From Alphaproteobacteria bacterium (GTDB lineage Bacteria; Pseudomonadota; Alphaproteobacteria; SP197), in NCBI GenBank assembly GCA_964291265.2, contig OZ219747.1, positions 1,408,001 to 1,472,000 of the forward strand: a stretch of 64,000 nt of DNA, written 5' to 3'. A model generated the notes under the pieces. That model searched no databases. It saw only the letters and a program-made list of their open reading frames with translations, and was not told the DNA's origin. The position numbers and the translations under genes were made by a program. Positions 17,861-48,457 of the stretch are shown here, piece by piece. The stretch's first letter is position 1. Every line of letters begins with the position of its first letter.

Positions 17861-19487
17861 AGGCCGCATCAAATCCTACGCCGCGTCCAGCAGCCTCCAT
17901 TCATCGTGTCATGGCAGGTCCAGTTGCCGTCGTCCATGTTCCTCATGCCAACGAGGTCGGCGAGCACCGCGTCGACATCCTCCTCGCCGGCGCGGATTTC
18001 CAAACCGCGCGCGAGACAGGCCCGCGTCGTACGCGGCCGCCACGCCCGGTCCCAAGACGCCCCATTTTCCCTCCCGTCCCGCGGTTACAGGCTCTCGGTC
18101 AGTTCCCGCATGGCGGCGCCGAACACCGCGTCGCGCCACGGTTGGAAGCGTTGGCGGGCGGATTCGACGGACTCGTTGTGAAAAAAGAGGAACCCTTCCT
18201 CTGTCAAAGGAACCAGGCTTGAATTCTGCACGTCTTCTTCGTCGCTGTCCCGGAACTCCAGAAACGGCGCGCATATCAGAGTTCCGTTGAACTCCCGTCC
18301 GATACCGTGAACGGCGAAGACAAGTTTCGCGCGACGTCGCCAATACATGTTCAGAGATACCCAGTGCCTGAACTCACCGAGATTGGCACAATATTTCAAC
18401 TGTTCCCTGGCATTCCTGACAATCTGGTGCCGAAAGTAGTAACTTGTGGAGTCGTCCGCCTCCGTCACCGACACCTTGCTGTCCAAATGTATCCTCTGCA
18501 ATGCGCTCCTTATCGCTCCACCATGCTGTTCCAACCAGCAGCGCAACTCGCGGGAGACCTCTTCGGCGACTTCCACAACCGACTCGCGGTCCTTCTTTTC
18601 TGCATCCGCCGTCTTTTGTGCCGCTACCGCCAGCCCGGAGAGAATTTCCGCAACGCTGTTCCGTTCTCTGAGGACAAGTTCAGAGAGTGCAACAGCCTTG
18701 ACGAATTGACGGTTCTGCAGACGGACAACGAGATCGACAAGAGGCTTGAGTGAACCACCATCGGCTGCTTCCAAGGAATCGATGTAAGCTGATCTGTGAT
18801 CCCGCGTGACAACAAACGGAAACAATCCATCCTGCACCAAGACGAGTGATGCCAATGCTCGGGCAACCCGGCCATTTCCGTCCTGGAACGGGTGAATCTG
18901 TGTGAATCGGTGATGCAGCCAGGCGACTTGAATTTCCAGCGGAAGTTCCGACTTCCGGTGAACCTTGTGCATCGAGATCAATCTCTCCATTTCGCTGGAT
19001 ACCTGTTCCGGAGAGCAGTACTCATACTGTATGCCTTCACGAATCGGCGAATTCTTCTGCTTCTTCCAGTCTCCTCGAACGAGGGGCACTTCTACATGCC
19101 GTCCCAGAGAATCAGTTGCTTCGGTGAACTTCTGGCTGCGGAGCAGCGCCCCGTGCAGTTCCTTGACCCAGGACGTCGACAGCATCCGCGTCTGCTTTAC
19201 GAAATCGAATACGCCATCCAGGGCGTCCTTTTGGTCCCGAATCGTAACTACTCACCCCCTACTGATGACGGATCGTTTTTCCTGACGGGTTCGGATCCGG
19301 CATTTTCTCTTGCCGCCTTCACTTGCTCGCTGCCGATGATCGGATGTGCGTGTTCCGACTGACAAGAAGCGGATCGATCTTCGGCTTCAGCTCCACGTTC
19401 CGGCCTTGTATGACCAGGTTTTGTCCCCGTGATGATGCAATCATCCACAGCGGTTGGCTGCCTTTCCAATCCTCTGGAGATATGCGC

Positions 19488-19516
19488 TTGACATTGTAGG
19501 AGGGGCACTCTACATG
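19488..19516 (+). promoter_or_regulatory. Putative sigma70 promoter for the IS66 MTase-transposase operon
   Basis: TTGACA-17 bp-TACATG, 35 nt upstream of the MTase ATG. Confidence 0.5.
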
Positions 19517-19550
19517 CTGGCCATCGGGGCGGTTTGCGTCGGAGATATTG

Positions 19551-20225
19551 ATGGCGGCATGGTACGGATCGAAGGCGACGACGGGTCTGAGCCAGGCGAT
19601 CGTCGCGGCCATGCCGCCGCATGACGTGTACATCGAGGCGTTCCTTGGGGGCGGCGCGATCATGAAGCGCAAGCCTCCGGCGCTACGCAGCATCGGCATC
19701 GACCTCAACCGACGGGCGATCGACACCTTCCGCTGTGACTATCCGGTGGAGCTTCACCAAGGCTGCGCCCTGCGTTTTCTCGAGACCTTCGCCTTCCAGG
19801 GCCGCGAGCTGGTCTACTGCGACCCGCCTTACGTGCAGTCGACGCGCCGGTCGCAGCGCCGCTACCGCTTCGACTGCACGGACGATGACCATGTTGCGCT
19901 CCTCGACATCCTGACGTCGCTGCCCTGCCAGGTGATGATCTCCGGCTATCCCTCGCGGCTCTACGACACGCACCTCGCCGGCTGGCGCTCGGCCGAGGTC
20001 CAGGTCAACAACCAGGCCTGCGTTGTCACCGAGAAGCTGTGGTTCAACTTCGCACCGGGCCGGCCGCACTGGCATACGTGTGCGGGCAGGAACTCGATCG
20101 ACCGCCAGCGCATCAAGCGCCTCGCAGAGAGCTGGGCGCGGCGCTACCGGACGATGCCCGAAGGCGAGCGGCTCGCCGTGCTGGCGGCTGTCATGGCGGT
20201 GGAGGCGTCGTCATGGCGAGCGTGA
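19551..20225 (+). CDS. DNA adenine methyltransferase (Dam/D12-like, short)
   Basis: WYGSK (motif X), YIEAFLGGGA (SAM-binding motif I), YCDPPY (motif IV), ISGY, E-LWFN. Confidence 0.88.
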   Translation: MAAWYGSKATTGLSQAIVAAMPPHDVYIEAFLGGGAIMKRKPPALRSIGIDLNRRAIDTFRCDYPVELHQGCALRFLETFAFQGRELVYCDPPYVQSTRRSQRRYRFDCTDDDHVALLDILTSLPCQVMISGYPSRLYDTHLAGWRSAEVQVNNQACVVTEKLWFNFAPGRPHWHTCAGRNSIDRQRIKRLAESWARRYRTMPEGERLAVLAAVMAVEASSWRA

Positions 20226-21691
20226 ACGGCACGTCTGTGCGCCAGGAGGCCGACGTCTTCCAGAAGCAGTTCCAGGATCTCCGCAAGCAGGGCAAGGTCA
20301 ACCAGGAGTGCGAGGAGCTCTTCCGCGGCATGCTGATGCTGATAAAGCTGTTGCTGACCGTGCTCATGGAGAAGATCACACGCAAGACAAGCCGGAACTC
20401 CGGTCTGCCGCCATCGCAGACTGACAAGGACGAGAGCGCGAGGCGCACCGGGAGCCACGGCAAGGGCCCGAAACCGAACCAGCAGACGGGCGACAACCTG
20501 CGCACGACCACCGTCGAGGAGACGATCGTCGTCGATGCCTGCGACGCCTGCGGCGCCGACCTCCACGATGTCGACCCCGTCGACCGGGAGTGCCGCGTCC
20601 TCTACGACATCGTGTTCGAAGTCGTCGAGCGCCGCGTCGAAGCCGAGATCAAGGAATGCCCGAAGTGCCGGACCCGGACCAAGGGCCGGTTCCCAGACAA
20701 CATGCCGGGCCCCCTGCAGTATGGCGTCAGCATCCAGGCCCTCGTCATCAACCTGCTGATCGCCCAGATGCTGTCCCTGCGTCGTGCCGTCTCGCTCGTG
20801 CACGCGATCTCCGGCATCAAGCTCTCCGAGGCGACCTGCCTCGGCTATGTCCGGCGCTTTCACGATGCCCTCGCATCATGGGAGGAGGCCGCCGTGGCCC
20901 ATCTCCTGCAACAACCGGCCCTGCATGTCGACGAGACCGGCTTCCGGGTCGCCGGCAAGACCCAATGGCTCCATGTCGTCACCGACGGCACCCTGACGTG
21001 CAAGTTCCCGCACCCCAAGCGCGGCCGGGAGGCGATCGAAGAGATCGGCATCATCCCGCGCTACAAGGGCGTCCTGATCCACGACTGCTGGGCTGCCTAC
21101 ATGGGCTACGATCAATGCCGCCACCAACTGTGCGGCAGCCATCTCCTGCGCGAACTGACCTTCGTCGTCGAGTCCAACGGCTACCGCTGGGCGCGACTGA
21201 TGAAAAGCCTGCTGCGCGAGGTCTCCCGCAGGGTCAACAAGAGCGCATCCAAGACCTTGAACGAGGCCGACCGCCGGGCCGTGCGCAAGCGCTACCGCAC
21301 CATCCTCACCCAGGGCGCCAGGGAACTGCCCGACATCCCGCCACGGACGAAAGGAAAACGGGGACGCATCGCAAAGTCCGACGCGCACAACCTGCATGAA
21401 CGTCTCGTGAAACACGAGAAGTCCGTCCTGCGCTTCATGAAGGACCCCAATGTCAGTTTCACAAATAATACCGGAGAGCAGAAGATCAGGATGACAAAGG
21501 TCAAGATCAAGGTGTCCGGATGTTTCCGTACCATGCCCCACGCCAAAGCATGGTGCCGCGGCTCAAGCTACCTCACCACCATGGACGCACTCGGCTACAA
21601 CCCTCACGTCGCCATCCACATCGCCCTCGACGGAAAGGCCGTAGACATCCTCAACCAGCACTACGGACAACCAGACCCTAACAAGGGGTGA
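20213..21691 (+). CDS. IS66 family transposase (TnpC-like)
   Basis: TSRNSGLPPSQ, CDACG...CPKC zinc finger, HVDETG, IHDCW, HQLCGSHLLREL, FTNNTGEQKIR; stop codon lies inside the right TIR. Confidence 0.95.
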   Translation: MASVNGTSVRQEADVFQKQFQDLRKQGKVNQECEELFRGMLMLIKLLLTVLMEKITRKTSRNSGLPPSQTDKDESARRTGSHGKGPKPNQQTGDNLRTTTVEETIVVDACDACGADLHDVDPVDRECRVLYDIVFEVVERRVEAEIKECPKCRTRTKGRFPDNMPGPLQYGVSIQALVINLLIAQMLSLRRAVSLVHAISGIKLSEATCLGYVRRFHDALASWEEAAVAHLLQQPALHVDETGFRVAGKTQWLHVVTDGTLTCKFPHPKRGREAIEEIGIIPRYKGVLIHDCWAAYMGYDQCRHQLCGSHLLRELTFVVESNGYRWARLMKSLLREVSRRVNKSASKTLNEADRRAVRKRYRTILTQGARELPDIPPRTKGKRGRIAKSDAHNLHERLVKHEKSVLRFMKDPNVSFTNNTGEQKIRMTKVKIKVSGCFRTMPHAKAWCRGSSYLTTMDALGYNPHVAIHIALDGKAVDILNQHYGQPDPNKG

Positions 21692-22142
21692 GTAGTTACC
21701 CCGAATCAACTGCAAGACAAATTCACGCGGTCGATTCGTGGTTCCGTGGGCAAGAAGTTCGGCTCGGAAACCCTGTTCGATCAAGGTTTGCGTGACGCCG
21801 CGATCGATGTCGTAGAGACCTTCGATGATCCCAGTCTCGATCGCCCATTCGCGGCTCAGTTTCTCGGTGAAATCGGCAAGCATCGGCGTCCCCCGAAGCC
21901 GGTCTCGCTGTTCTTGCCAGACAGCCTTGATGCCGGACATTTCCGCGCTCGCCATGGCCTTGATGTCGTCTGCATTTTCCGAATCGATGTCCTGAATTCC
22001 CGTGGCGGGATTCCAGATGTGCTTGATTACCAACGTCATGAATTCTCTCTTGCTGAATGTCCCGCCCTGTGTTGAAACTCGTCTGAGAGTGCCGCTTCGT
22101 GATGGTAGGTTACGCTGCGTCCTTGATCTGGTCAAGCTTGCA

Positions 22143-22172
22143 GCTCTGACGATGCGAAGTCAGAGCCTTTTT
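22143..22172 (+). terminator. Putative intrinsic terminator hairpin
   Basis: GCTCTGAC-8 nt-GTCAGAGC followed by CTTTTT. Confidence 0.45.
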
Positions 22173-22187
22173 GAGCGGAGGCATTTG

Positions 22188-22302
22188 GCATCTACACATC
22201 CCCCTACTGAGGACGAATCGTTTTTCCTGACGGGTTCGGATCCGGCATTTTCTCTTGCCGCCTTCACTTGCTCGCTTCCGATGACCGGATGTGCGTGTTC
22301 CG
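22188..22302 (+). mobile_element. Copy of the IS66 left end (decayed TIR), interrupted by a group II intron
   Basis: Nearly identical to 19244-19357; homology stops exactly at GTGTTCCG|GTGTG. Confidence 0.9.
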
Positions 22303-23230
22303 GTGTGCCAACTGGCAGATGGTATGGGGTGAAAGTCCCCTGTAACGAAGGAGTAGCCAAACCACGTTTCTCCGCGAGCCGTGCGTCGGTTCCCGCGAGG
22401 GGGCAGGCGAAGCGTCGGTAGCGGTACGGATGGGCAGGGCTAATGAGCACCGAAAAGACGACAATTCGGGGTGCCGAGGATTTCAGATCGGTCGAAGGCA
22501 ACATCGCAGGCATCGCTATGGTGAGATGTCGGCGAGCTCCGCGGTGTCAGAAAACCCATGCACGTCCGTACGCCTTCTGTTGGGACCCTGGGAGGTCTTC
22601 AAACTGTCCCGCCTGTCGTGGCGGGACCGTGTAGGGAAAGGAGAAAGCCGAAGCCTATGATGCACGGTTTGAAGAAGTCGGATGGGGTCGTAGGGTGTGC
22701 TGGGCAGCGCCCAAATCAGGTGGGTTCAAGTCCCACTGGCGCTCGGGTAAGGGGCGCCATATCCAAAAGCGGGGGTCATTCCTCGCTGGCCGGGGTGAGC
22801 GACTTCCTGGGCTTCACGCACTTCTGCACGGAGACCCGGAGAGGACGCTTCAGGCTTGGTCGCAAGCCGGTCGCAAAACGGGTCACAAGGACCCTGGCGC
22901 GCATCGAGGAGGTGCTTCGCAATCGACGGCATCACGACATATGGGAGGTCGGCATGTGGCTTGGGCGAGTTGTCAATGGCTGGTCCAACTACTTCGCCGT
23001 CCCGGGGTCGACCCGATGGCTGCGCACGTTCCGCCAAAGGCTGCAACGCCTGTGGCTGCGAGCGATCCGCCGCCGCTCCCAGCGCCACCGTTTTGACTGG
23101 AAGCGATTGGAGCGAATGACCGAGCTTCTTTGGCCGCGCGCCTCCATCCGCCACCCATGGCCGGACCAGCGGTTTACCGTCAAGCACCCGAGGTAGGAGC
23201 CGGATGGATTAGCGTCCAAGTCCGGATCTG
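22303..23230 (+). mobile_element. Internally deleted group II intron (5' ribozyme part, RT C-terminus 22801-23196, domain V; domain VI missing)
   Basis: GTGTG start; 22303-22694 and 22801-23230 are near-identical to parts of the full intron at 61806-63724. Confidence 0.92.
22695..22800 (+). mobile_element. 5' fragment of a second, unrelated group II intron nested in the first
   Basis: Begins GTGTG exactly where homology to the outer intron stops; GTGGGTTCAAGTCCCAC hairpin is analogous to GGGGTGAAAGTCCCC. Confidence 0.55.
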
Positions 23231-23238
23231 AGGGTCTG

Positions 23239-23515
23239 ATGGGCACGATCGCGCAAGCCTAGGTCGAACAGGGAAGAGCCGAGGGACTCGAGAGGGAGGA
23301 TCGAACGAGGCCGGAGCGAGGGCAGGGAAGAAGGTCGCGTGGAAGGCCAGGCCGGAATTGTTCTGCGTCTTCTGGAACTGCGCTTCGGTGATGTGCCGGG
23401 TGCGGTCCGCGAGCGGGTCCGCGGAGCGTCGGCCGCCGAACTGGAGGCCTGGGCGGAGGCGGTGCTGGCTGCCACAAGCCTTGATGATGTGCTGGCCGCC
23501 AGGCCCAGGCACTGA
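23239..23515 (+). pseudogene. Rpn/YhgA-like (DUF4351) C-terminal fragment
   Basis: MGTIAQA*VEQGRAEG, frameshift, then EGREEGRVEGQAGIVLRLLELRFGDVP...ELEAWAEAVLAATSLDDVL. Confidence 0.7.
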
Positions 23516-23975
23516 GCCCGTCGCGCCACGCGCACCCGCCGATCATGGTGCCCGGCGTGACGCCGACGCACCCTGCGGACGGACAGATCGCATGGGTTGC
23601 GCCCCCTGCCTCCCTGCCGAGTCCCTCCCCGGCACACAGGAACCGGCGTCACGGGAGCGGGGAGCGAAACGCACGGCTGCGCAGGTTCTGATGGCAGACA
23701 ACCGGAACCATGCTCCATCGTCATCCGGTTCAGGTCGTGTGACCTGCCAAAGTCGGGCGACAGGCCCGGATCGCATCCAGGTTGAGGACAACGGAACGCT
23801 GCGATGACTCGGCAGCCGACCCTGCCTGATTCCTCTCCGGGAATGATCCGCCATCGCCAGGTTCAGCAGGGGACGACGTGCAGCCCACATGGCATTTTCT
23901 GCATCAGCTGGATGCTGCGCACCAGCGAAGGCGACGTCACCGCCACCTGCCACGAGAGGCGGTGGTTGATCGAAG

Positions 23976-24073
23976 GGCAGCGTTCGCTCACCCAGGAATG
24001 CGGGCGAGACACGGGACATGTGCGTGGTTGCCGCCGTCATCCTCATCATCGTCACCCTCGACCGAACGCTTGC
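23976..24073. mobile_element. Decayed IS66-type MITE
   Basis: CAGCGTTCGCTCAC...GACCGAACGCTTGC ends; interior TGCGTGGTTGCCGCCGTCATCCTCATCA matches 25618-25732. Confidence 0.65.
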
Positions 24074-24364
24074 AGAGGCGCCGCCGGAACGCCGCCGGGA
24101 TCGAGAGCGAGGCATCCGGGCCGGAAACGGCACGCGGACGGCCGCGAAGCCACGGAGTTCGCCCAGGACATGCCGATCAGGCCTTAAGCTCTTCAGCCTT
24201 GTCGAAAGATAAGCCGCGGCATGAGGAATTCCTGCGGGCGCCTGACAGTCCTCTTGCCGGATGACCGGACAATCCCTATATTCCGGGCGACGAAGCGCGG
24301 GCGGGTTGGTGTCCGCGACCGGGGATGCCGGCAACGGTCCCCGGTGACGATGAGCGGATCATCC

Positions 24365-24661
24365 ATGAAGATTTCCATCACAGGTCATCAGACAGACGTC
24401 AGTGAAGCGTTGCGCCGCCACGTGGAGGAGTCTCTCGGCAGTGCCATTGACAAGTACTTTGCCGATTCGAAGAGCGCTCACGTGACATTCTCGCGCGAGG
24501 CGCAGTCTCACAGGGTGCACATTTCCGTCCATGTCGGACACGACATCAGTGCCGAGGGGCAAGGCGATGCGCAGACGGCGTCTGCCGCGTTCGGCGAGGC
24601 TATGGAACATGTGGCAAAACAGCTTCGGCGCAACAAGCGGAAACTGCGCGAGCATCACTGA
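24365..24661 (+). CDS. hpf: Ribosome hibernation promoting factor (short form)
   Basis: MKISITGHQTDVSEALR...KYF...KQLRRNKRKL. Confidence 0.9.
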   Translation: MKISITGHQTDVSEALRRHVEESLGSAIDKYFADSKSAHVTFSREAQSHRVHISVHVGHDISAEGQGDAQTASAAFGEAMEHVAKQLRRNKRKLREHH

Positions 24662-24699
24662 CATGGCCCGCGCCGTGCCGAGCCGGATCGAGTGACGGA

Positions 24700-25164
24700 A
24701 TGGAGATCTCCTCGCTCGTGACGCCCGATGGCGTGGTCCCGCGCCTGCGGTCGGCCAGCAAGAAGCAGGTGCTCCAGGAACTGGCGCGCCATGCCTCGCG
24801 CATTGCCAACACCGATGAGCGGGTCATCTTCGATGCCCTTCTCGAACGCGAGAGACTGGGATCGACGGGGGTGGGGCTTGGCATTGCCATTCCCCATGCC
24901 AAGCTGCCCGGATTGCCATGCCTCCATGGCGTTTTCGCGCGCACGACCTCGCCGATCGACTTCGATTCCGTGGATGAGCAGCCGGTCGACCTCGTGTTCC
25001 TGCTGCTGGCCCCGGAAGACGCCGGTGCGGACCACCTCAAGGCCCTCGCCCGGGTGTCGCGTCTGCTTCGCAACCACGACATCTGCCAGAAACTCCGGGG
25101 TGCTGACAGTCCGGAGGCCATCTATGCCCTCCTGACCGAAGAGGAGACGGACCATCCGGACTGA
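24700..25164 (+). CDS. ptsN: PTS IIA-like nitrogen regulatory protein
   Basis: LLERERLGSTGVGLGIAIPHA, DHLKALARVSR. Confidence 0.95.
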   Translation: MEISSLVTPDGVVPRLRSASKKQVLQELARHASRIANTDERVIFDALLERERLGSTGVGLGIAIPHAKLPGLPCLHGVFARTTSPIDFDSVDEQPVDLVFLLLAPEDAGADHLKALARVSRLLRNHDICQKLRGADSPEAIYALLTEEETDHPD

Positions 25165-25170
25165 ACTGTC

Positions 25171-25611
25171 TTGCTGATTCACGGCACCTCGGTCGAGATC
25201 GACGGCGCCGGTATCCTGTTGCGCGGCCCACCGGGAAGCGGCAAGAGCGACCTTGCCCTGCGCCTGATCAGCGAACGCGAGGCGCGGCTGGTAGCGGACG
25301 ATCAGGTCGTGGTCAGCCCGCGGGACGGCCGCCTGGTGGCCCGGCCGCCTGCAACCCTGGCGGGCATGATCGAGGTGCGGGGACTGGGCATCGCCCGGCT
25401 CGACCACCATCCGTTCTGGGCTCTCCACCTGGTCGTCGAACTCTGCCATACCGTGGCCAGGTTTCCTGCACCCCGGCAGACAGTGATTGCCGGGTGTCCG
25501 CTGCCGGTCTGCCGACTTCATGCACCCGAAGCCTCTGCCGTGGCCAAGGTGGTGCTGGCGGTGAAGGCGCTCCAGGGCGCGGTGTCCATCGACAACGGTC
25601 CTGGCTGCTGA
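25171..25611 (+). CDS. hprK: HPr kinase/phosphorylase, short alphaproteobacterial form
   Basis: IHGT, GPPGSGKSDLA, LVADD, IEVRGLGI. Confidence 0.9.
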   Translation: MLIHGTSVEIDGAGILLRGPPGSGKSDLALRLISEREARLVADDQVVVSPRDGRLVARPPATLAGMIEVRGLGIARLDHHPFWALHLVVELCHTVARFPAPRQTVIAGCPLPVCRLHAPEASAVAKVVLAVKALQGAVSIDNGPGC

Positions 25612-25617
25612 GTGCAG

Positions 25618-25732
25618 GTCAGCGTTCGGTCACGGTGCAGCGATGACAGAACTGAGCGAATGCGAGTCTTGTGGGCAATGCGTGGTTGCCGCTGTCATCC
25701 TCATCACTGTCACCCTGTGACCGAACGCTTGC
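25618..25732. mobile_element. IS66-type MITE, 115 bp
   Basis: TIRs GTCAGCGTTCGGTCAC / GTGACCGAACGCTTGC; 8-bp TSD GAGTGCAG at 25610-25617 and 25733-25740. Confidence 0.85.
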
Positions 25733-26229
25733 GAGTGCAGGGCCTCGAGAACACGGCGATGCCGTCGGTCGTCCCGGTCCCCGGATTCGACCCGCGAAAC
25801 GCAGGAATGCTGCCGGGTCGCCGGGACTTCCTGCAGGGGGTGTCGTTTCCATGCCTTTGCATTCCGTGTTCAGCCGGCCCCGCGGCGAAGTCTGTTCGGT
25901 CGGGGACCCGGCGCCTGACGGCCTGACGCCCGGGCCCTTCAGTTCGGGATCGTGCACGTCCAGGATGACCTTCCTTGGCCTGAGCGTCTCGACCCGGTAC
26001 CGGGTGCAGTGTAGTGTAACGTGGCCATGATCGGGCCTCAGCAGGTGTTGTGTGACGCTGGGGGAAGAAGGCCATCTCCTGTGCGACCGCAGTTCCAGAA
26101 ACGAGAGGAATCAGGCACATTGTATCAACTGATCAGCAACCGCGGGTGCAGCTTGTCGTGTCATGGGTGACATGCCCTGCGCAAGGAGGGAGCTGAAGAC
26201 GTGACACGCTGCAATCCGGCAGGTGCCGC

Positions 26230-26634
26230 ATGATCGGTGTGGTTCTCGTGACCCACGGCCGCCTGGCCGACGAGTTTGTCGCCGCCATCAGGCATATCGT
26301 GGGTGACCAGGAGAACATGACGGCGATCTCGATCGGACCCGACGACGACATGAAGCAGCGCCGTGCCGACATCGTCGAGGCGGTTGCCGGTGTCGACAGC
26401 GGTGCAGGCGTCATCATCCTCACGGACATGTTCGGCGGCACGCCGTCCAATCTCGCCATCTCGGTCATGAACCCCGGAAAGGTGGAGGTCATCGCCGGCG
26501 TCAACCTGCCGATGCTGGTCCGACTGGCATCGGTCCGCCAGAACGCCACTGTCGAAGAGGCCGTTGCCGCGGCCCAGGAAGCAGCGCGGCGCTACATCAA
26601 CGTGGCCAGCAACCTCCTCAAGACCGAAACGTGA
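26230..26634 (+). CDS. PTS mannose/fructose-type IIA component
   Basis: MIGVVLVTHG, LTDMFGGTPSN, GVNLPML. Confidence 0.93.
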   Translation: MIGVVLVTHGRLADEFVAAIRHIVGDQENMTAISIGPDDDMKQRRADIVEAVAGVDSGAGVIILTDMFGGTPSNLAISVMNPGKVEVIAGVNLPMLVRLASVRQNATVEEAVAAAQEAARRYINVASNLLKTET

Positions 26635-28671: not shown

Positions 28672-28738
28672 GGCGGTGGACGGCTCCGCAGGTCTCTGAT
28701 AAGCGATGCGACCCTCGGGTCGAATGGATGGCATGGTC

Positions 28739-30040
<1,302 letters not shown>

Positions 30041-30049
30041 TGGTGCGGC

Positions 30050-31066: not shown

Positions 31067-31143
31067 GGCCGGTATCCTGTCCACAGGTCTCACAAGGCTT
31101 ACCCGAAGGCGGTGGGAGGGAACAACCCGGTTGGGGATTCTCC

Positions 31144-35517: not shown

Positions 35518-35546
35518 GACAGCGTCGGCCGCAGGCACGACCGGAC

Positions 35547-36866: not shown

Positions 36867-36876
36867 TCCCCTCCGG

Positions 36877-39885: not shown

Positions 39886-41090
39886 AGATCCACTCCCAGG
39901 GATTGGGCAACGGTGAACACGTCCTTGTCGCCCCTGCCGCACATATTCATGCAGATGATGTGATCGTTGGGGAGCGCCGGGGCAATCTTCATGACATGAG
40001 CGAGCGCATGGGCAGGTTCGAGGGCCGGAATGATTCCCTCGAGTCGGGAACACAGGCGAAAGGCTTCGAGAGCCTCGACATCCGTGGCCGACACGTAGCT
40101 GACTCGCCCCTGGTCCGCCAGCCACGCGTGTTCGGGGCCGATACCCGGGTAGTCGAGACCCGCCGAGATCGAATGGGCCTCGACGATCTGTCCGTCGTCG
40201 TCCTGCAGGAGGTAGGTCCGGTTGCCGTGCAGGACACCGGGCCGGCCGCCGGTGATCGATGCCGCGTGCTCGCCGCCTTCGATGCCGCGTCCGGCAGCCT
40301 CCACACCGATGATGTCGACGGTCCGGTCATCGAGAAAAGGATGGAAGAGGCCCATGGCGTTGGAGCCGCCGCCGATACAGGCGACAATGGTGTCGGGAAG
40401 ACGTCCTTCGACGCTCATCAACTGCTCCTTCGCCTCGCGTCCGATAACCGCCTGGAATTCGCGCACGAGTTCTGGATAGGGATGAGGGCCGGCCACGGTG
40501 CCGATGATGTAGAAGGTTGAATCGACGTTGGTCACCCAATCGCGCAAGGCCTCGTTGAGGGCGTCCTTGAGGCTGCGGGAACCGGACGTCACATGACGGA
40601 CCTCGGCGCCGAGGAGCTTCATGCGAAAGACATTGGGGGCCTGGCGCTCGATGTCCTTGGTCCCCATGTAGACGACGCAGGGAAGGTTGAAGCGGGCGCA
40701 TACCGTCGCCGTCGCCACGCCGTGCTGGCCCGCGCCGGTTTCTGCGATGATTCGGGTCTTGCCCATGCGCTGAGCCAGAAGGATCTGGCCGACCGTGTTG
40801 TTGATCTTGTGGGAGCCGGTGTGATTGAGTTCGTCGCGCTTGAAGTAGATGCGGGCGCCGCCAAGGTGCCGGGTCAGCCGTTCGGCGAAGTAGAGCGGAC
40901 TCGGTCTGCCGATGTAGTCCTTGCCGAGGCCGTGGAACGTGTCCCAGAACTCCGGGTCGTCGCGGGCCTCCTGCCAGGTCCGGTTCAGGTCCAGAATGAG
41001 CGGCATCAGCGTTTCGGCGACATAGCGGCCGCCGTACATGCCGAAGTGGCCGTCCTGATCCGGCCCCTGGGCGTAGGAATTGTCCATCAT
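39882..41090 (-). CDS. trpB: Tryptophan synthase beta subunit
   Basis: [31 protein letters not shown]. Confidence 0.98.
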
Positions 41091-41128
41091 CGTTGCTCTG
41101 TCCGGGCGCGAACCATGCACAAGGGATA

Positions 41129-41770
41129 TCAGATAACCCGGGCCTGCTCCATAAACTCGGCGATGCGTGAGGCAGACTTGTGTCCGGGCGTTGTCTCGAC
41201 GCCCGAGGACACATCGACCATGGTGGCGCCGCTCGCCTCCACGGCTCGGCAGAGGTTGCCGGCGTCGAGACCGCCCGAGAGGATCCATGGCGAGCGCGGC
41301 CGGATGCCGGCCAGCAGCGTCCAGTCGAAGGCTGTCGCGTTGCCTCCGGGACGCGTCGCACCCCGGGGCGGCATGGCGTCGAACATGACCATGTCGGCCA
41401 CCGTGTCGAAGGATGGCAGGGATTCCAGGTCATCGGCCGTGGCCACGCGAATGACCTTCATCACCCGGACACCGAATCGCGTGCGGACATGGGCGAGTCG
41501 GCGGGCATCCTCGCTGCCGTGAAACTGGACGGTGTCGAGTTCTGCCGCCGCGATCACGGCGCCAAGCCTGTCATCGCCGGCATCGACGGTGACGCCGACC
41601 TTCTCGATGCCCCCGGGTACGTGGCGTGCCAGGGCGGCCACTTCCTCGAGGGACACGTTCCGCGGGCTCCGGTCGAAGAAGATGAATCCGATCATGCGCG
41701 CACCGTGGCGCACCGCTGCATCGAGGGCAGGCCGTTCCCTCAAGCCACAGATCTTGACGCCGAGGGCCAA
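41129..41770 (-). CDS. trpF: Phosphoribosylanthranilate isomerase
   Basis: [28 protein letters not shown]. Confidence 0.96.
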
Positions 41771-41773
41771 GGG

Positions 41774-42487
41774 TCAGGACCGGATCATGTCGGCGACTGT
41801 CCGAGCCGCAGCCGCAGCCGGGTCCAGGGCCCGGGTGATCGGGCGTCCGACGACAATGTAGGAGGCGCCGGCAGCGACGGCGTCGCCGGGAGACATGGTG
41901 CGTTTCTGGTCGTCGCACCTGTCGCCGCCAGGGCGGATGCCGGGGGAGACGACAAGGAACCCCGGTCCGCAAAGCCGTCGCACGTCAGCGATTTCACGGG
42001 GTGAACACACCACGCCGTCGACACCCGTGCCGAGGGCGAGTTCGGTCAGGCGCAACACCTGGTCACGCACCCCGCCTCGCCCGCCGGTCACTTCGACATC
42101 TTCGTCATCCATGCTCGTCAACACGGTGACGGCGAGAATCTTCGGCCGGGCATCTCCCGCCGGGGTCACCGCCTCCATGGCGGCGCACATCATGTCGGGC
42201 CCGCCGGTTGCGTGGACCGTCGTCATGAAGGGGGCGAGGGGCAGGAGGGCACGCAGTCCTCCGGCCACGGTTTCCGGGATGTCATTCAGCTTGAGATCGA
42301 GAAAGATCCGGGCCTCTTCGCCGGCGACCGCCCGGACACCGGCCGCGCCGTGGGCATAGAAGAACTCCATGCCGAACTTGAAGGCTCCGACATGGCCTTC
42401 CAGACTGGAAACCAGTGACGAAGCCCTTTCCGTGCAGGTGGTGTCGATGGCACAGACAAGGCGTGTCCTGGGGTCAGCCGATTGCAC
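41774..42487 (-). CDS. pyrF: Orotidine-5'-phosphate decarboxylase
   Basis: FLDLKLNDIPETV, VTVLTS, PGIRP, DDQKR, VVGRPIT; start is approximate. Confidence 0.95.
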   Translation of the reverse strand: MQSADPRTRLVCAIDTTCTERASSLVSSLEGHVGAFKFGMEFFYAHGAAGVRAVAGEEARIFLDLKLNDIPETVAGGLRALLPLAPFMTTVHATGGPDMMCAAMEAVTPAGDARPKILAVTVLTSMDDEDVEVTGGRGGVRDQVLRLTELALGTGVDGVVCSPREIADVRRLCGPGFLVVSPGIRPGGDRCDDQKRTMSPGDAVAAGASYIVVGRPITRALDPAAAAARTVADMIRS

Positions 42488-42574
42488 CCTGCCCTCCGCC
42501 CTGTTGTCATGGGACGAGTGTCTTGTAGGGCGCACGGAACAACAGTGCAAGACGGGCCCCTGAGCCCGGCCCTG

Positions 42575-43531
42575 TCAGTCCTTGGCAGCCCTCGCCAGCA
42601 ACCAGCGTGCGGTGCCGAGATCGAGGTGTCCGCCGCCCGAGTTCTTGAAGAGCGTGATGTCGTCCTCATTCCGCCGGCCGCCCACTGTCCCCCGCGAGAG
42701 ATCGAAGAGATCACCGACAACATCATCCTCGGTGATGATACCGGTCTCCAGCGGCTGTGAGATGTCGCCGACGCGGTGCAGCGTGAACATGCGGGAATCC
42801 ATGTAGATTCTGGCGCGCCGCACACAGTCGTCATCGCTCTCGCGCATGTGCGTCTGGTAGCTTCCGACAAGGTCGAGATGGGCTCCCTTGGCGAGCCAGG
42901 CGCCACGGATCAGGGGCTCGGTGGCCATGGTGGCACAACTGATGATGTCGGCCTTGCGCGCTGCGGCCTCGAGGTCGTCGGTTGCTTCGACCGCGAGGGA
43001 GTCGATGGCGAGCCGTCGGGCGAGGGCCTCGGCCCGTTCCGGCGTGCGGTTCCAGATGCGGACGACTTCCAGGGAAGGGCGTACGGCCTTCATGGCCATG
43101 ACGAGGTGCGGCGCCATGGCGCCGGCGCCCACCATGAGCATGGTGCGGACATCCTCGCGGGCAAGAAAGCTGGCGCCCGTGGCCGAATCGGCGGCTGTCT
43201 TGCGCAGTGTCAGGGCGATGCCGTCGATGAGGACGAGCGGTTTGCCGTCCCTGCCGTCGAAGAGCGCGTAGACTCCCTGTACCGAGGGCAACCCCGTGCC
43301 CGTGTACTCGTTGTCGGGAAACACCGTGGCGAGCTTGATTCCCACCGCTTTGTCACGCTGCCAGGCGGGAAGAGCCAGAAACACGTTGTCGGTCCCCGAA
43401 GGACCCGGCTGCGAGAGATGAATGTCACGCACCTCGTCGATGTCCTCGAGGTGAAAGCGCTTCAACCCCTCGACGAGTGCAGCGTAATCCGCCAGTTCGT
43501 GAACTTCACTGCCGGTGATGAAGCGGACCAT
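42575..43531 (-). CDS. Ornithine cyclodeaminase / mu-crystallin family protein
   Basis: KLATVFP, LTLRKTAA, GAGAMA, ITLFKNSG. Confidence 0.88.
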   Translation of the reverse strand: MVRFITGSEVHELADYAALVEGLKRFHLEDIDEVRDIHLSQPGPSGTDNVFLALPAWQRDKAVGIKLATVFPDNEYTGTGLPSVQGVYALFDGRDGKPLVLIDGIALTLRKTAADSATGASFLAREDVRTMLMVGAGAMAPHLVMAMKAVRPSLEVVRIWNRTPERAEALARRLAIDSLAVEATDDLEAAARKADIISCATMATEPLIRGAWLAKGAHLDLVGSYQTHMRESDDDCVRRARIYMDSRMFTLHRVGDISQPLETGIITEDDVVGDLFDLSRGTVGGRRNEDDITLFKNSGGGHLDLGTARWLLARAAKD

Positions 43532-43545
43532 CGCCGGGTGTCCGT

Positions 43546-43896
43546 TCAGGCGGTCATCGGAGGCGAGCCCGGCGGTTGCCGGTCGAGTTCCGACTTCAGC
43601 ATGTCGCGCTCCCGGGTCACCGAGGCAAGGCTTGTTTCGAGATGCCTCACGCGGCGTTTGCGCTCACCCGACAACCGGCGGGCCGGATGGCCGCGCATCA
43701 GCACGAAGAGACCGCCGAAGAGGGCTCCGGCGGCAAAGGACACGAGGATGACAAGGAAGACGGGAGCCGCCACGACCCGCGGGTAGGGGAACAGGGAGAC
43801 CTCCATCTCCGTGCGGTTGGCCAGCACGAAGACGACAATGGCGAGAGCGAGAAGAACGCCGACAATCCCGACAACGGGCATGAGGGGATTGCGCAT
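43546..43896 (-). CDS. lapA: LapA (DUF1049) family membrane protein
   Basis: Two TM helices with F-LANR, then a coiled coil; follows ihfB. Confidence 0.7.
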   Translation of the reverse strand: MRNPLMPVVGIVGVLLALAIVVFVLANRTEMEVSLFPYPRVVAAPVFLVILVSFAAGALFGGLFVLMRGHPARRLSGERKRRVRHLETSLASVTRERDMLKSELDRQPPGSPPMTA

Positions 43897-43906
43897 GACG
43901 GCTGGT

Positions 43907-44200
43907 TCAGTCCTGCGCGCCCCTTGCGTTGAGGCGATCGCGCAGGGGTTTGCCGGTCTTGAAGAAGGGCGCACGCTTGGACTTCACGTTGACTTTCTCG
44001 CCGGTTCGCGGATTGCGGCCGATACGAGCCCGTCTCACGCGGGTCGCAAACGAGCCGAAACCGCGCAGTTCGACGCGCCGCCCGGACTCCAGGGACCGGG
44101 TGATTTCCTCGAAGATCGTGACGACGAGGTCTTCGGCCTCGTACTTCTTGAGATAAGGATAGCGCGCGGCAACGAGCGCGATGAGGTCAGATCTCGTCAT
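43907..44200 (-). CDS. ihfB: Integration host factor beta subunit
   Basis: MTRSDLI, RVELRGFGSF, GRNPRTG, PFFKTGK. Confidence 0.95.
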   Translation of the reverse strand: MTRSDLIALVAARYPYLKKYEAEDLVVTIFEEITRSLESGRRVELRGFGSFATRVRRARIGRNPRTGEKVNVKSKRAPFFKTGKPLRDRLNARGAQD

Positions 44201-44310
44201 GTAAGCATCCCGTACTCCAGCCCACCCAGTCTGGTCCCGGCATCATTCGACTGTCAATGATCTCCATGGGGCGGGTGCTCAGCTTGGCGCCCGCCCCATG
44301 ACGCCGGGAC

Positions 44311-45906
44311 TCAGGCTGTCGGGTCCGTGAACCACCAGCGTTCCATCAGGCGACCTCCGTCGAGGCCCCAGTTGCTGCCGATGTCGGGTCCGTGGGCCAG
44401 CGCCGTCGATGCCGCGTCGACGTTGTTGGCGTAGGCCATGACCATGGCCCCGCCTTCCATGGCACAGATCTGCTGCATTTCGCGGTACATCTCGCGACGC
44501 AGCGGTTCGTCGAGCTCGGCGCGGGCCGCGATGAGCAGCTCGTTGAACCGGTCGTGCTTCCAGAAGGTGTCGTTCCATGGCGCGTCCGCCGAATAGGCGG
44601 TGGAGAACATCCAGTCCTCGGTGGGGCGGCCTCCCCAGTAGCAGGTGCACCAGGGCTTGTTCATCCAGACATCGGCCCAGTAACCGTCAGCCGACTCCCG
44701 CACGACGTTGATCGTGATGCCGGCCGGGGCCGCGTGCTCCCTGTAGAGGACGGCGGTGTCGACGGCGCCGACGAACGCCGCCTCGGATGTCGACAGTTCC
44801 ACGGTGAGGCTGTCGAGGCCGGACTGTTTGAGATGCCACTTCGCCTTGTCGAGATCGTAGCTGGCATGCTCGATGTCATCGGCGAAGTAGCGGTTGGCCG
44901 GGGTGATCGGCGTATCCTGGCCGACCAGTCCGTAGCCGCGCAGGACCTTGTCGACGATGTCCTGACGATCCATGGCATGCTTGAGGGCGAGGCGGACGTT
45001 GTTGTCATCGAACGGCGCCGTGTCCGTGCGCATGGGCAGGGTGTAGTGCAGCGTGCCCGTGGCCTCGACAAGGTCGACGGCAGGATGCTGCGCCAGGAGG
45101 TGCGCCGTCTTGGTGTCGACGCGGTCGATGACGTCGACCTGGCCCGACATGATGGCGTTCTGGCGCGACGCCGGGTCGGCGATCGTCGTCATCTCGACGG
45201 CGTCGAACCAGCCGTAGCCGGCCTTCCAGTAGTTCGGATGGCGCTCGAGGACAGAGCGCACGCCGGGTTCGAACTCGACAATCCGGTAGCTGCCGCAGCC
45301 GACGCCGGACAGTGGGTCGGCAATGTTCCCCTCGCCGTCACCCGGCTGGATGCCAAGATGATAGTCGCTCATGATGTAGGGGTAGTCGGCGTTGCCTTCC
45401 GCGAGCTGGATGACGACCGTATCGCCGTCGGCGCGCATGTCCTCGACCTGTTCGAACAGGCTCGATACCGCGGAGACCGAATCTTCGCCGCGGTGGTAGT
45501 TGAGGCTGGCGACGATGTCGTCGGGCGTCACGGTCTTGCCGTTGTGGAACTCGACGCCCCGGCGAATCCTGAATGTCCAGGTCCTGGCATCGGGCGTGGC
45601 GTCCCACTCCTCGGCCAGTTCGGGGGCGAGCTGGTTGGTTTCGTCGACGGCCGTGAGGTAGTTGAAGAGACCGCCCATGCCCATGTTCGACACGAAACCG
45701 TTCTCGTAGGTCGCCGGATCGAGGGAATCGGTCGTCGAACCGTGGCCGAGGCCGATTCTCAGCGTGCCCCCGCGTTGCGGTTCGGACGCCCTCGCCGCGA
45801 CGCCTCCCGGCAGGGTGGGACCGGCAAGGGCAGCCGCTCCGGCCGCAATTGCGCCACCCAGGACGGTGCGCCGCGACGCACCCTCCCTGTGCTCTGTCTT
45901 CTTCAT
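44311..45906 (-). CDS. ABC transporter substrate-binding protein, family 5 (Tat-exported)
   Basis: SRRTVL twin-arginine signal, LAPELAE-W, FHNGK, PFDDNNVRLALK. Confidence 0.9.
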   Translation of the reverse strand: MKKTEHREGASRRTVLGGAIAAGAAALAGPTLPGGVAARASEPQRGGTLRIGLGHGSTTDSLDPATYENGFVSNMGMGGLFNYLTAVDETNQLAPELAEEWDATPDARTWTFRIRRGVEFHNGKTVTPDDIVASLNYHRGEDSVSAVSSLFEQVEDMRADGDTVVIQLAEGNADYPYIMSDYHLGIQPGDGEGNIADPLSGVGCGSYRIVEFEPGVRSVLERHPNYWKAGYGWFDAVEMTTIADPASRQNAIMSGQVDVIDRVDTKTAHLLAQHPAVDLVEATGTLHYTLPMRTDTAPFDDNNVRLALKHAMDRQDIVDKVLRGYGLVGQDTPITPANRYFADDIEHASYDLDKAKWHLKQSGLDSLTVELSTSEAAFVGAVDTAVLYREHAAPAGITINVVRESADGYWADVWMNKPWCTCYWGGRPTEDWMFSTAYSADAPWNDTFWKHDRFNELLIAARAELDEPLRREMYREMQQICAMEGGAMVMAYANNVDAASTALAHGPDIGSNWGLDGGRLMERWWFTDPTA

Positions 45907-46366
45907 GTCTCTTGACCTCCCGTGGTCTGTCCGGTGTTGAACCATCGCCATGATGACAGAATGCGGACGCTCTTTCCACAGGGTCTGCAGATGCGCAAAT
46001 GGTGTAACGTTATCAGGTGAGCATCAACTACCGGTCATCGCCAACAATGCTCCCCAAACCACCCCGACTATCGGACAGTCTATCCGCGCTCGATCAGTAT
46101 AGGCATGCGATCGAGCTTTATGAGACGACCCTCAGGAACCGTATCGATCGCGAGTTCTACCGCAAGGAACTCCGGGCGAAGGCCAAGTACTACGGCACCA
46201 TCGCAGGGAGACAACCCGAAGAGGGTAACGCAGGATCTTTCTATGAGACGCTCTCGTCGCCCGTCACCTGGATGCCTATGGGCCCGAAGCGCCGATCAAG
46301 CATCGGCGCAAAGGAGACGCGTCCACGGTGCCGCTGGTCTACTCTGACCTGCCCTCGGAGCTTATC

Positions 46367-46882
46367 TAGTGTCATGTCAACAATGATATGTCGTATATTT
46401 TGCGCTAGACTGTCCGTCCATTCGGGACGGAGGTCGGAGTATGAAACGCTACGTGGTGACCCTGGACGAGGCGGAACGGGAAGAACTTTCGGAGATCACG
46501 ACCAAGGGCTCGCACCTGTCGCAAAAGGTGATCAACGCCCTGATCCTGCTCAACTGCGACGAGGGCGCGTTCAATGAACGCCAGGTGACCGGGGAGGTCA
46601 TCGCCGGGATTCTGCGCATCAGCATGCGCAAGGTAGACCGGGTGAAGAAGCGTTTCGTGGAAGAGGGTCTGGAGGCGGCATTGGGTGGCCGGCAGGGACG
46701 TCGTCCCAGCTACGTGCGAAAAGCCGACGGCGCCTTCGAGGCGCGCTTGGTGGCCCTGAGTTGTGGCGAACCGCCCGAGGGTCACGCGCAATGGTCGTTG
46801 CGGCTGCTGGCTGATCGCGTTGTCGAGCTTGGCTACATCGATGCCGTGTCACACGAGACAGTGCGGCGTGTTCTCAAAAAAC
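46367..46882 (+). mobile_element. IS630-family element, 5' part (HTH ORF from 46441), cut by an IS66 end
   Basis: TA then GTGTCATGTCAAC left end; MKRYVVTL-ER-EL...PPEGHAQWSLRLLA...SHETVRRVLKK ends at the AAAAAAC slippery site. Confidence 0.85.
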
Positions 46883-46997
46883 GTAACTACTCACCCCCCT
46901 ACTGATGACGAATCGTTTTTCCTGACGGGTTCGGATCCGGCATTTTCTCTTGCCGCCTTCACTTGCTCGCTTCCGATGATCGGATGTGCGTGTTCCG
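46883..46997 (+). mobile_element. Copy of the IS66 left end, interrupted by a group II intron
   Basis: GTAACTACTCACCCC TIR; near-identical to 19244-19357 up to GTGTTCCG|GTGTG. Confidence 0.93.
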
Positions 46998-47173
46998 GTG
47001 TGCCAACTGGCAGAAGGTATGGGGTGACAGTCCCCTGTAACGAAGGAGTAACCAAACCACGTTTCTCCGCGAGCCGTGCATCGGTTGCCGCGAGGGGGCA
47101 GGCGAAGCGTCGGTAGCGGTGCGGATGGGCGGGGCTAATGAGCACCGAAAAAGCTATCATCCGGGGTGCCGAG
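46998..47173 (+). mobile_element. Group II intron 5' fragment
   Basis: Homologous to about 61806-61986; truncated by the MITE that follows. Confidence 0.9.
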
Positions 47174-47174
47174 A

Positions 47175-47356
47175 CAGGACTATTCTTTTGTCCGGTTTCG
47201 TCCGACGAGAGGGCGTCGTAGACAGATCTGGGGGTCCATTCGGGACCGGATTTCGTTGTCGATATGCCGGTTCCGACCTCGAGAAGGTGCCACCAACTCC
47301 AAGAACGGCCATTGACGCGGTTGTCCGCCGCCGATCACGACAACAGAACGGTCCTG
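47175..47356. mobile_element. ISAs1-type MITE, 182 bp
   Basis: TIRs CAGGACTATTCTTTTGTC / GACAACAGAACGGTCCTG match the ends of 32860-35092; no TSD seen. Confidence 0.75.
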
Positions 47357-47410
47357 CGGACCTCCGCCGGAGACTTGACGAAAACCCGCCCCCCGGGGCA
47401 GGATGCGCCC

Positions 47411-47926
47411 ATGATGTCGTCCTTCGACACCCTCGCTGCCGCTGAGGCCCTCCAGGACGCCGGCGCGAAGCCCGAACTCGCCAAGGCCATGACCGCCCAG
47501 CTCAAGGCCGCGGCGAAAGCCGGCGAACCCGTCACAAGGCCCGAACTCGACGCCGCTCTCGGCACACTCAAGGCCGAACTGCTCGAACGAATCGCCGCGA
47601 GCGAGAAGAGCCTCAGCGAACGAAACACCGCTACAGACCAGCGGATCACATCAGTCGAGAAGAACCTGATCGAGCGCATCGCCGCGAGCGAGAAGAGCCT
47701 CAGCGAACGAAACACCGCTACAGACCAGCGGATCACATCAGTCGAGAAGAACCTGATCGAGCGCATCGCCGCGAGCGAGACGCGCCTGCTCGGACGCATC
47801 GCCGAGACGGAACGCCGGCTGATGGACCGCACGGCCGCCATCGTCTGGCGGCTGTTCGGCGCCATGGTCGCGCTCGCCGGCATCACCGTCGCGGCGCTCG
47901 AATACCTGCGCATACCGGCCGGATAG
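47411..47926 (+). CDS. CCDC90/DUF1640-like membrane-anchored coiled-coil protein
   Basis: FDTL-A-L-AG head, VTRPEL neck, coiled-coil stalk, C-terminal TM helix. Confidence 0.7.
   Translation: MMSSFDTLAAAEALQDAGAKPELAKAMTAQLKAAAKAGEPVTRPELDAALGTLKAELLERIAASEKSLSERNTATDQRITSVEKNLIERIAASEKSLSERNTATDQRITSVEKNLIERIAASETRLLGRIAETERRLMDRTAAIVWRLFGAMVALAGITVAALEYLRIPAG
47591..47779 (+). repeat. 87-bp perfect tandem repeat (about 2.2 copies) in the coiled-coil stalk
   Basis: IAASEKSLSERNTATDQRITSVEKNLIER occurs twice, identical at the DNA level. Confidence 0.92.
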
Positions 47927-48113
47927 CCTTCGGCGGCCCCGGTGACCGCAACCAGCCGAAAAATGCCGGCAAACATGCGCGCCCCACAAGCGGCGCTGAC
48001 AGACGCGAAGCGAAGACGGCGGAAGGCGCACAGCATCGCCCGGGCCCTCAGTATCTGTCCGGCGTGTGCCGGGTCCACACGGTCGGCTGCATGTCGAGAT
48101 CGGCTCCAGTTCG

Positions 48114-48457
48114 GTAACTGCCCAGGTCTGATTTTGCCGAGTCCTGACGGGAGGTGGGTTGATGGTTCCGGTCTGGTGGCGCCGAGGAGGGATGTCAGAA
48201 GCGCAGTTTCGGTGTGCCAGCGAACTGGCAGAAGGTAGGGGGTGAAAGTCCTCTGTAACGAAGGAGTAACCAAACCACGTTTCTCCGCGAGCCGTGCGTC
48301 GGTTGCCGCGAGGGGGCAGGCGAAGCGTCGGTAGCGGTGCGGATGGGCAGGGCTAAGTCAAGCCGCGCAGGATCAACAACCCGACGGCACCAAAACAGCA
48401 TCCAACGCAACCAACGTCAACACAGACTCAGACCTGACGAGGTACCTAGGTAGTTAC
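48114..48457. mobile_element. Deleted IS66-type element (second lineage) enclosing an intron fragment
   Basis: GTAACTGCCCAGG ... CCTAGGTAGTTAC (11/13 inverted match); no TSD seen. Confidence 0.6.
48212..48356 (+). mobile_element. Group II intron 5' fragment
   Basis: GTGTGCCAG start; homologous to about 61806-61951. Confidence 0.9.

Follow-up and report, generated by a model that had tools for sequence, protein, structure and literature searches.

Does a group II intron use the ends of IS66 insertion sequences (ISs) as a harmless landing site on which it can multiply? The question is raised by the stretch of DNA analysed here, a 64,000-nt window (G000:C2:1408001-1472000; C1 and C2 are the two contigs of the assembly) in which two left ends of one IS66 family run at the same base into a group II intron, and an intact IS66 retains the uninterrupted site. 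An earlier note on this sequence had proposed that the intron homes repeatedly to the non-coding region just inside IS66 ends, leaves the terminal inverted repeats (TIRs) and open reading frames (ORFs) intact, and so hitchhikes on IS transposition. A harmless, multiplying non-coding landing site is not what the genome shows. We consider it probable that the window pieces are broken leftovers, likely of an older wave, and that the intact copies, which lie in IS66 transposase genes, likely arrived by fork-dependent retrohoming and not by riding on the IS. Three IS66 families are referred to below as IS66a, IS66b and IS66c, and the two recent intron forms as F and O.

Intron copies and their hosts

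The window holds one full-length, autonomous intron of form F, 1919 nt long (61806..63724, + strand), with exon-binding sites (EBS) CGCAUC (EBS1), AGUCC (EBS2) and G (EBS3). Form F runs from GTGTG to GAC, in agreement with the 5' GUGYG and 3' AY ends of group II introns, and empty sites are present elsewhere in the genome. Its ribozyme domains were recognised by RF02005 (169.7 bits) and by RF00029 at 34.7 bits (E 1.5e-4), under the gathering score of 40; domain I (DI) was recognised by Rfam at all four intron loci of the window. The intron-encoded reverse transcriptase (RT)/maturase (62066..63652, +) matched TIGR04416 at 356 bits (cut-off 300), PF00078 and, weakly, PF08388. A profile scan of the protein gave no HNH or other endonuclease family match, and the family is thus endonuclease-less, as the earlier note had read it. 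Its C-terminal RHPWP motif suggests that the intron may be of bacterial class E. This copy sits at an ectopic site, GGTGCG/CCA (the slash marks the insertion point), outside any IS66 and with no IS66 match nearby; the preference for IS66 is real without being exclusive, which had also been foreseen.

To collect the junctions of the whole genome, the intron ends were searched by BLAST. Forty 5' matches were obtained; a distant intron at C2:3568259 (69-75% identical) was dropped and one 9-nt relic added, giving 40 junctions, and hosts were assigned by reading host ORFs across the sites and by family scans. All three IS66 families pass NF033517 (family scan: DDE_Tnp_IS66 transposase) and have GTAA TIRs and 8-bp target-site duplications (TSDs), the latter identified for IS66a and most IS66c copies; their transposases are 24-32% identical. 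Thirty-five of the 40 junctions lie in IS66 DNA, which makes up 3.0% of the genome, an enrichment far beyond chance that bears out the proposed tie between intron and IS66. Most are in IS66c (2225 bp), the target of both recent forms: the RT-bearing form F accounts for 13 junctions at nt 1057, antisense in the transposase gene at the codon DETSW^R, and form O, 660 nt long and without an ORF, for 14 junctions at nt 273, sense and near the start of the transposase gene. The other IS66 junctions comprise two antisense in the IS66b transposase gene, one in its last codons (window position 48212), two antisense near the end of the IS66a transposase gene and three at nt 114 of IS66a. Outside IS66 we found one junction in an IS4-family gene, two in an ABC-transporter gene, the window copy at 61806 and one with an unknown exon. 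Transposase coding sequence is interrupted at 32 of the 35 IS66 junctions, and only 3 of 35 fall at the non-coding nt 114. The claims of a non-coding homing site and of intact ORFs are therefore not supported by the genome-wide collection: most copies break the transposase.

Two of the hosts outside IS66 deserve a description. The IS4-family target is one of several copies of an IS4/Tn5-like transposase fused to a DruA (Druantia) domain (C2:3754060-3756400). In the ABC-transporter ATPase gene, form O is precisely placed, sense, near the 3' end (C2:2219838-2220497); this gene would need splicing help in trans.

Whereas the 5' motif of the intron is present in about 40 copies here, each of five relatives has 1-3; the burst is thus peculiar to the G000 lineage. 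Exon pairing follows the targets. EBS1 and EBS2 pair with the flanks at 6/6 and 5/5 positions in form F, at 6/6 and 5/5 in the form found in IS66b, and at 5/6 and 3/5 in form O, and EBS3 (G, A and C in F, O and the IS66b form, respectively) is accompanied by C, T and G at +1; all three EBSs vary between forms in step with the flanks. At C2:1924668 the two exons come from different hosts, a direct view of exon shuffling. In other genomes, testable loci without exception (18 of 18) have EBS1 paired at 5-6 of 6 positions. The EBS1 usually found there is CAGAUC (15 of 20 loci), many of the flanks of such loci read as domain V (DV) of another intron, and no IS66 transposase match spans any of the other-genome junctions with EBS1 data. 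This common form often sits at the boundary between DV and domain VI (DVI) of other group II introns, and two nested DV/DVI remnants persist in G000 (C2:3565793 and C2:4024777). A contig of one related sequencing run, X4, joins the intron 3' end (...GAC) to G1 at a summed depth of 21,503, as a circular intron or a tandem copy would; no head-to-tail copy was found in G000, where 5 loose pattern matches do not lie at intron ends.

Orientation and replication in IS66c

The replication origin was placed at about 0.72-0.73 Mb by the skew minimum and parS, with dnaA at 0.648 Mb, and the terminus at about 3.29 Mb. Relative to these points, 36 of 40 junctions are in the leading sense (p = 1.9e-7), and the count stays at 35-38 of 40 across the origin and terminus choices tried. 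The host ISs show no such bias: orientations are 16 versus 12 for IS66c (p = 0.57), 11 versus 10 for IS66a and 6 versus 6 for IS66b. That the introns are biased while their hosts are not points to fork-dependent retrohoming, with hitchhiking at most minor.

Within IS66c the two sites behave as mirror images. Of the copies that present the F site in the leading orientation, 12 of 14 carry an intron there, against 1 of 15 that present it in the lagging one (p = 2e-5; this count adds 2 copies missed by an earlier pattern); for the O site the corresponding counts are 12 of 16 and 2 of 12 (p = 0.006). Among the 27 assessable IS66c copies, 13 carry O only, 10 F only, 1 both and 3 neither (p = 3e-4), so that 24 of 27 are occupied. 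The sole copy with both introns has mismatched TSDs and is likely a recombinant. Since the F and O sites lie on opposite strands, one of them is favoured in each IS66c, and near-exclusion follows. In mechanistic terms, the intron ribonucleoprotein would reverse-splice into the lagging-strand template; one site per IS66c copy would be open to attack, set by the way that copy faces the fork, and F would take the copies whose transposase gene faces against the fork and O those facing with it. Form O would likely be spliced and mobilised in trans by the F protein.

The same IS66c copies could have acquired their introns in another way, if IS transposition were the main means by which composites of IS66c and intron spread, and the orientation bias arose because head-on copies were selected against. 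Most composites do have intact TIRs and their own 8-bp TSDs, as the hitchhiking proposal had led one to look for, and such spread would fit both a tight cluster of O hosts and two O copies that lie in the disfavoured orientation. The hosts themselves speak against it. They are mosaic: no site separates all O hosts from all F hosts (0 fixed differences), and an O host can be all but identical to an F host. The O host at 2684k and the F host at 1147k differ at 2 of 2163 sites, and those at 1876k (O) and 1914k (F) at 4 of 2223. Divergent hosts, in turn, carry identical introns (one sequence accounts for 13 of 14 O copies, and one for 9 of 11 F copies). O and F are also precisely placed at non-IS66 sites, and selection would need to have eliminated one half of the insertions almost entirely. 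We regard spread mainly by IS transposition as unlikely; as the main route it fails on orientation, which in the introns follows replication and in the hosts does not, and a few such events are possible.

Several observations nevertheless weigh against fork-dependent retrohoming as the source of the intact copies. In a permutation test, distances among O hosts were slightly smaller than those between O and F hosts (p = 0.075); the test used 21 of 29 copies, setting aside two further empty copies and 6 that were partial, recombinant or divergent. Nine O copies fall in one tight IS66c cluster, and two of the clustered copies are in the disfavoured orientation with the F site empty, in near-identical IS66c haplotypes; it is these two that make a few hitchhiking events possible. 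An orientation bias could also result if head-on transcription of the intron is selected against. The copies are related, so the p-values overstate independence, and C1 was taken as leading on its + strand from its skew. Form O ends in ...CGCGTC and not in AY (14 copies compared, e.g. C2:1398930-1399589), and the GTC end may impair its splicing. Despite this end form O appears mobile, with identical copies at two unrelated targets. Fork-dependent homing is thus proposed here as the probable account of a genomic pattern.

This pattern has close relatives. A bias towards the lagging-strand template is described for endonuclease-less introns such as RmInt1 in PMC6698660 and PMC5894124. RmInt1 in ISRm2011-2 and Sr.md.I1 in an IS66 transposase ORF likewise combine insertion in a transposase gene with fork bias; as described in PMC4615759 and PMC5894124, both are class D introns with one site each, whereas the present family has sites in three IS66 families, mostly antisense. 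Occupation of a transposase gene may matter to the host element, and PMC4238363 proposes that RmInt1 limits the spread of its host IS. TeI3, which is ORF-less, and TeI4 of Thermosynechococcus elongatus also form a one-genome burst through EBS divergence, with ORF-less copies mobilised in trans, as form O likely is, and, again as here, with IS elements and other introns as targets; no partition of one IS by replication direction is described, and the word 'lagging' has 0 occurrences, in the text of PMC2882425 available to us.

Different introns within one IS family are known from Escherichia coli as well, where one host is IS679, presumably an IS66-family element. There E.c.I2 and E.c.I9 occupy two positions of an Rhs-type IS and E.c.I3 lies in IS679, at an intron occupancy of 14-20% according to PMC3522654, compared with 24 of 27 IS66c copies here. 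A literature search, mostly at the level of listings, found no report of two sister introns dividing one IS by orientation.

Junctions near the IS66 ends

What, then, are the junctions in the window? The intact IS66a (19244..21699, +) has 15-bp TIRs, the 8-bp TSD CCCGAATC, a Dam-like methyltransferase passenger gene and one IS66 transposase gene (20039..21691, +; PF03050 and NF033517), and it preserves the empty site GTGTTCCG/ACTGAC at 19357..19358 (+), 114 nt inside its end. Both IS66a left-end remnants of the window (22188..22302 and 46883..46997, each + and recognised by sequence match) stop at GTGTTCCG and continue with GTGTGCC at 22303 and 46998, exactly as first described. The remnant at 22188 has a decayed TIR, with 7 mismatches and 1 gap against the intact IS66a end; the relic behind it (22303..23230, +) has a 5-nt deletion within nt 5-12 and an internal ORF deletion, and is truncated at the DV/DVI boundary, where it adjoins a remnant (23230..24073, +) that matches the non-coding flanks of an IS1634-family element at C2:1824681-1827505. 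The remnant at 46883 has an intact TIR and is immediately preceded by a helix-turn-helix transposase fragment (46441..46882, +), which we take to be IS630-like; its intron relic (46998..47173, +) carries the same 5-nt deletion and extends to about nt 181, where a multicopy repeat of about 185 bp truncates it just before EBS1. That repeat (47170-47360) has more than 20 genomic copies and is followed by an ORF (47264-47926) with an internal 87-nt duplication and no Pfam match.

The third relic (48212..48356, +; intron nt 1-146 with a 1-nt deletion) lies between an IS66b right end (48114..48211, -), which includes the last codons of the transposase, and an IS66b left end (48354..48457, -; sequence match). 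These ends had been flagged as possibly fortuitous repeats; they are true IS66b ends, 89-97% identical to complete copies, and together form an internally deleted IS66b without a TSD. The relic is indeed inside the end of a different IS66, but its site is coding and not non-coding: it falls within the last transposase codons (...LIP^KLRF*), 98 nt from the end. Its flank has GAAGCGC at -14..-8 in common with the form O target, and matches that target at 11 of 16 positions in register (0.0005 for random positions). Short elements elsewhere that resemble miniature inverted-repeat transposable elements, made of two IS66c or IS66b ends with the interior deleted (C1:38864-39000 and C2:66117-66252, 517829-517960 and 3086228-3086362), look like 48114-48457 without the intron sequence.

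A fourth junction of the same kind, at IS66a nt 114, lies outside the window at C1:226533. None of the three nt-114 introns has a 3' end, nor does the 48212 relic, and ACTGAC follows no intron 3' end in the genome. The relics at 22303 and 46998 share the 5-nt deletion as well as A19 and T47, and differ at 4 of 111 positions in their IS parts and at 13 of 176 in their intron parts. The shared changes indicate that the two likely derive from one old event plus duplication, an outcome that the proposal of repeated insertion had itself named as its refutation. At most two insertion events are needed at nt 114, of which C1:226533 may be the second. A19 is kept in the window relics and in 12 of 12 aligned relatives and is absent from F and O, suggesting that the relics are likely older than the current wave.

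Could nt 114 of IS66a still be an active, harmless homing site, with the intron spreading by transposition of the IS? The three junctions fall on the same base, in IS66a ends differing by at most 11 mismatches and with two intron alleles; all three are in the leading sense, with 0 of 10 lagging sites occupied (p = 0.21); and RmInt2 uses IS ends, according to PMC4615759. Two old EBS1 variants of the genome (CGCGAC and CGUAAU) also pair at 5 of 6 positions with GTTCCG, the nt-114 flank. The flank is, however, unmatched by any current full-length form, and only 3 of 21 nt-114 sites are occupied: 18 are empty, including 8 of the 11 that are favourably oriented. Two of the three junctions share one deletion, and there is no complete copy and no ACTGAC 3' junction. 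In the 22303 body the EBSs (EBS1 CAGAUC, EBS2 AGACG, EBS3 A) fit the DV/DVI site of the intron's own family (6/6, 4/5 and A-U) and not its own flank (4/6, 1/5 and A-A); EBS1 is lost in the 46998 and 48212 relics. The IS66a left end is present in 0 of 22 congeneric genomes, and metagenome scans returned 0 stretches with the IS66a nt-114 flank and 0 with the EBS1 stem-loop. In four related runs (X1-X4) queried with 22185-22420, runs that consist of contigs and hold 0.26-0.38 of the words, there was no joint and no piece bridging into the intron among the matches listed; contigs among these matches that end at the nt-114 site run on into ACTGAC-like sequence. We therefore hold an active site at nt 114 to be quite improbable. 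Complete IS66::intron elements with their own TSDs, which the earlier note had suggested looking for, exist as IS66c composites and number 0 at IS66a nt 114.

The comparison with RmInt2 is instructive here. RmInt2 in the inverted repeats of ISRm17 of Sinorhizobium meliloti is likewise endonuclease-less and IS-resident, with a lagging-template bias and a usable site in either facing of the IS (PMC4615759). In that account it is one intron in both inverted repeats, whereas here there are two sister forms that differ in EBS1, EBS2 and EBS3, each with its own coding site and on opposite strands; one of them is ORF-less, and the transposase is broken. The present system works like RmInt1 and RmInt2 but does not show RmInt2-type homing into IS ends.

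At the other extreme, the junctions near the ends might never have been integration sites, having arisen by deletion or recombination (through micro-homology or an IS110 target) with an intron elsewhere, or through assembly errors. The internal deletion of 48114-48457 would suit this, as the intron of intact IS66b copies lies 825 nt in from that end; so would C2:784334, which joins the first 9 intron nt to an IS110 target of the methyltransferase type, and the two-host exons of C2:1924668. Yet G1 of the intron is the exact junction base in every case, the match of the 48212 flank to the O target is in register, and the nt-114 junction recurs at three separate loci; we find such an origin very hard to credit. 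A shifted insertion point followed by exon deletion was also considered and not adopted, as the junctions fall exactly on G1. The exact G1 junctions, the 48212 flank match and the 5/6 pairing of the old EBS1 variants make it probable that the intron truly integrated at nt 114 and nt 98, in the form of EBS variants now extinct. These insertions, once integrated by variants now inactive, would then have been duplicated, shuffled between intron copies and truncated. Two qualifications apply to the window pieces as leftovers: nt 114 may, from its pairing, once have been a true homing site, and the leading sense of all four relics is not significant (4/4, p = 0.125).

A simple sigma-70 scan of 19200-19650 gave no promoter towards the IS66a genes and one 9/12 site on the minus strand, so that the promoter which the earlier note had predicted downstream of the empty site was not recovered. 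The methyltransferase ORF (19548..20225, +; N6-adenine type, PF02086, with TIGR00571 below its cut-off) overlaps the transposase frame in IS66a and, as a Dam-like passenger, in IS66b, with more than 20 genomic copies; a limited literature search found no clear description of this IS66a/IS66b passenger gene. The 5' part of a Fic/DOC-family ORF (18085-19185, -) stops just short of the element. Positions 19403-19461, within IS66a, are a 59-nt relic of the left end of the IS110 described below, a relic that is fixed in most copies. A 124-aa minus-strand ORF ending in the TIR raised the possibility that the tail of some other transposase forms the IS66a left end; this found no support, as tblastn matched only IS66a copies and the IS110 end.

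An IS110 at the intron 5' end and the wider picture

Three intron copies in the genome are split after nt 9 by one 1.98-kb IS110, whose fourth full copy lies in an IS66a methyltransferase gene at a similar sequence (full copies C2:2594635-2596612, 2668813-2670790, 3032854-3034831 and 2593465-2591488; 3 of 4 at the intron 5' end). Its DEDD transposase scored 202.6 bits with NF033542. In IS621, left and right target guides lie in a loop of the non-coding end around a CT core, according to the main text of PMC11208160. The non-coding end of the present IS110 holds an internal loop with TTCGCCT and GTGTGCCAG, and it shares with IS621 the CT core, the position of the guides and the match of guides to flanks. 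Relatives (31 loci examined) yielded 15 parsed copies of five guide types. In each of these, 6-10 of 10 flank positions were as the guides predict, and this agreement validates the reading of the loop as a sequence prediction. The right guide opens with two letters that hardly vary among relatives and may belong to the scaffold, which leaves a programmed match of 12 nt, or of 14 at most. Twenty-seven of the 28 exact 12-nt guide matches in the genome are intron 5' ends. The bridge RNA is thus predicted to target intron nt 1-14, which in the window copy read GTGTGCCAGGCGAA (61806..61819, +), the IS110 itself being encoded elsewhere in the genome; the IS66a methyltransferase ORF of the window includes a partial target, GAGCCAGGCGAT.

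Among 26 relative loci (of 27 IS110-protein matches), 5 lie inside group II introns, in 4 independent events and 3 genomes, and 1 is ambiguous; in the five genomes checked, the number of RT matches per genome is 6-41, which by estimate corresponds to about 1% of the DNA or less. The IS110 loci from one genome, G009, were in introns in 0 of 7 cases. One of the 26 is reversed, with an intron inside the IS110 gene. Such reverse nesting is seen in G010, where a group II intron 3' end runs straight into an IS110 transposase gene. Sister IS110s in the group II introns of relatives sit at positions other than the intron 5' end.

The deletions of the relics (1, 4 and 5 nt) fall within the IS110 target. 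At C2:784334, which with C1:28482 marks the antisense intron site near the 3' end of the IS66a transposase gene, the first 9 intron nt are joined to the methyltransferase-type target with the same 1-nt loss. We infer that the relic deletions may be IS110 scars; the 1-nt deletions could also be long-read errors at CCAGG. IS621 targets repetitive extragenic palindromic (REP) elements and the word 'intron' is absent from the main text of PMC11208160, whereas the guides here match a group II intron 5' end. The literature search found no IS110 guide against a group II intron, although supplementary bridge-RNA target tables (e.g. of PMC11208160) may hold cases.

A broader account, which we offer only tentatively, is a stack of three layers of parasites. 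An intron lineage would have moved from other introns to IS66 transposase genes and given rise to two forms, one autonomous and antisense, the other ORF-less and sense, which together capture IS66 in either orientation to the fork; the transposase of a sense-occupied IS66c would depend on the intron maturase. An IS110 clade would in turn program its bridge RNA against conserved intron sequence, in this genome the 5' splice end, and the relic deletions would be scars or escapes.

Each ingredient has precedents: introns in IS66 transposases, EBS divergence, ORF-less passengers and lagging-template bias. The genome offers them as a clean natural experiment, with about 28 near-identical targets in both orientations and two sister introns scored. 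The IS66c data show the strand rule genome-wide and separate homing from hitchhiking, and with 24 of 27 assessable IS66c copies interrupted they provide a testable case of intron control over IS activity. If true, the match of an IS110 guide to the intron 5' end would make group II introns a further class of natural target for bridge recombinases, and would help in asking how guides come to match abundant repeats.

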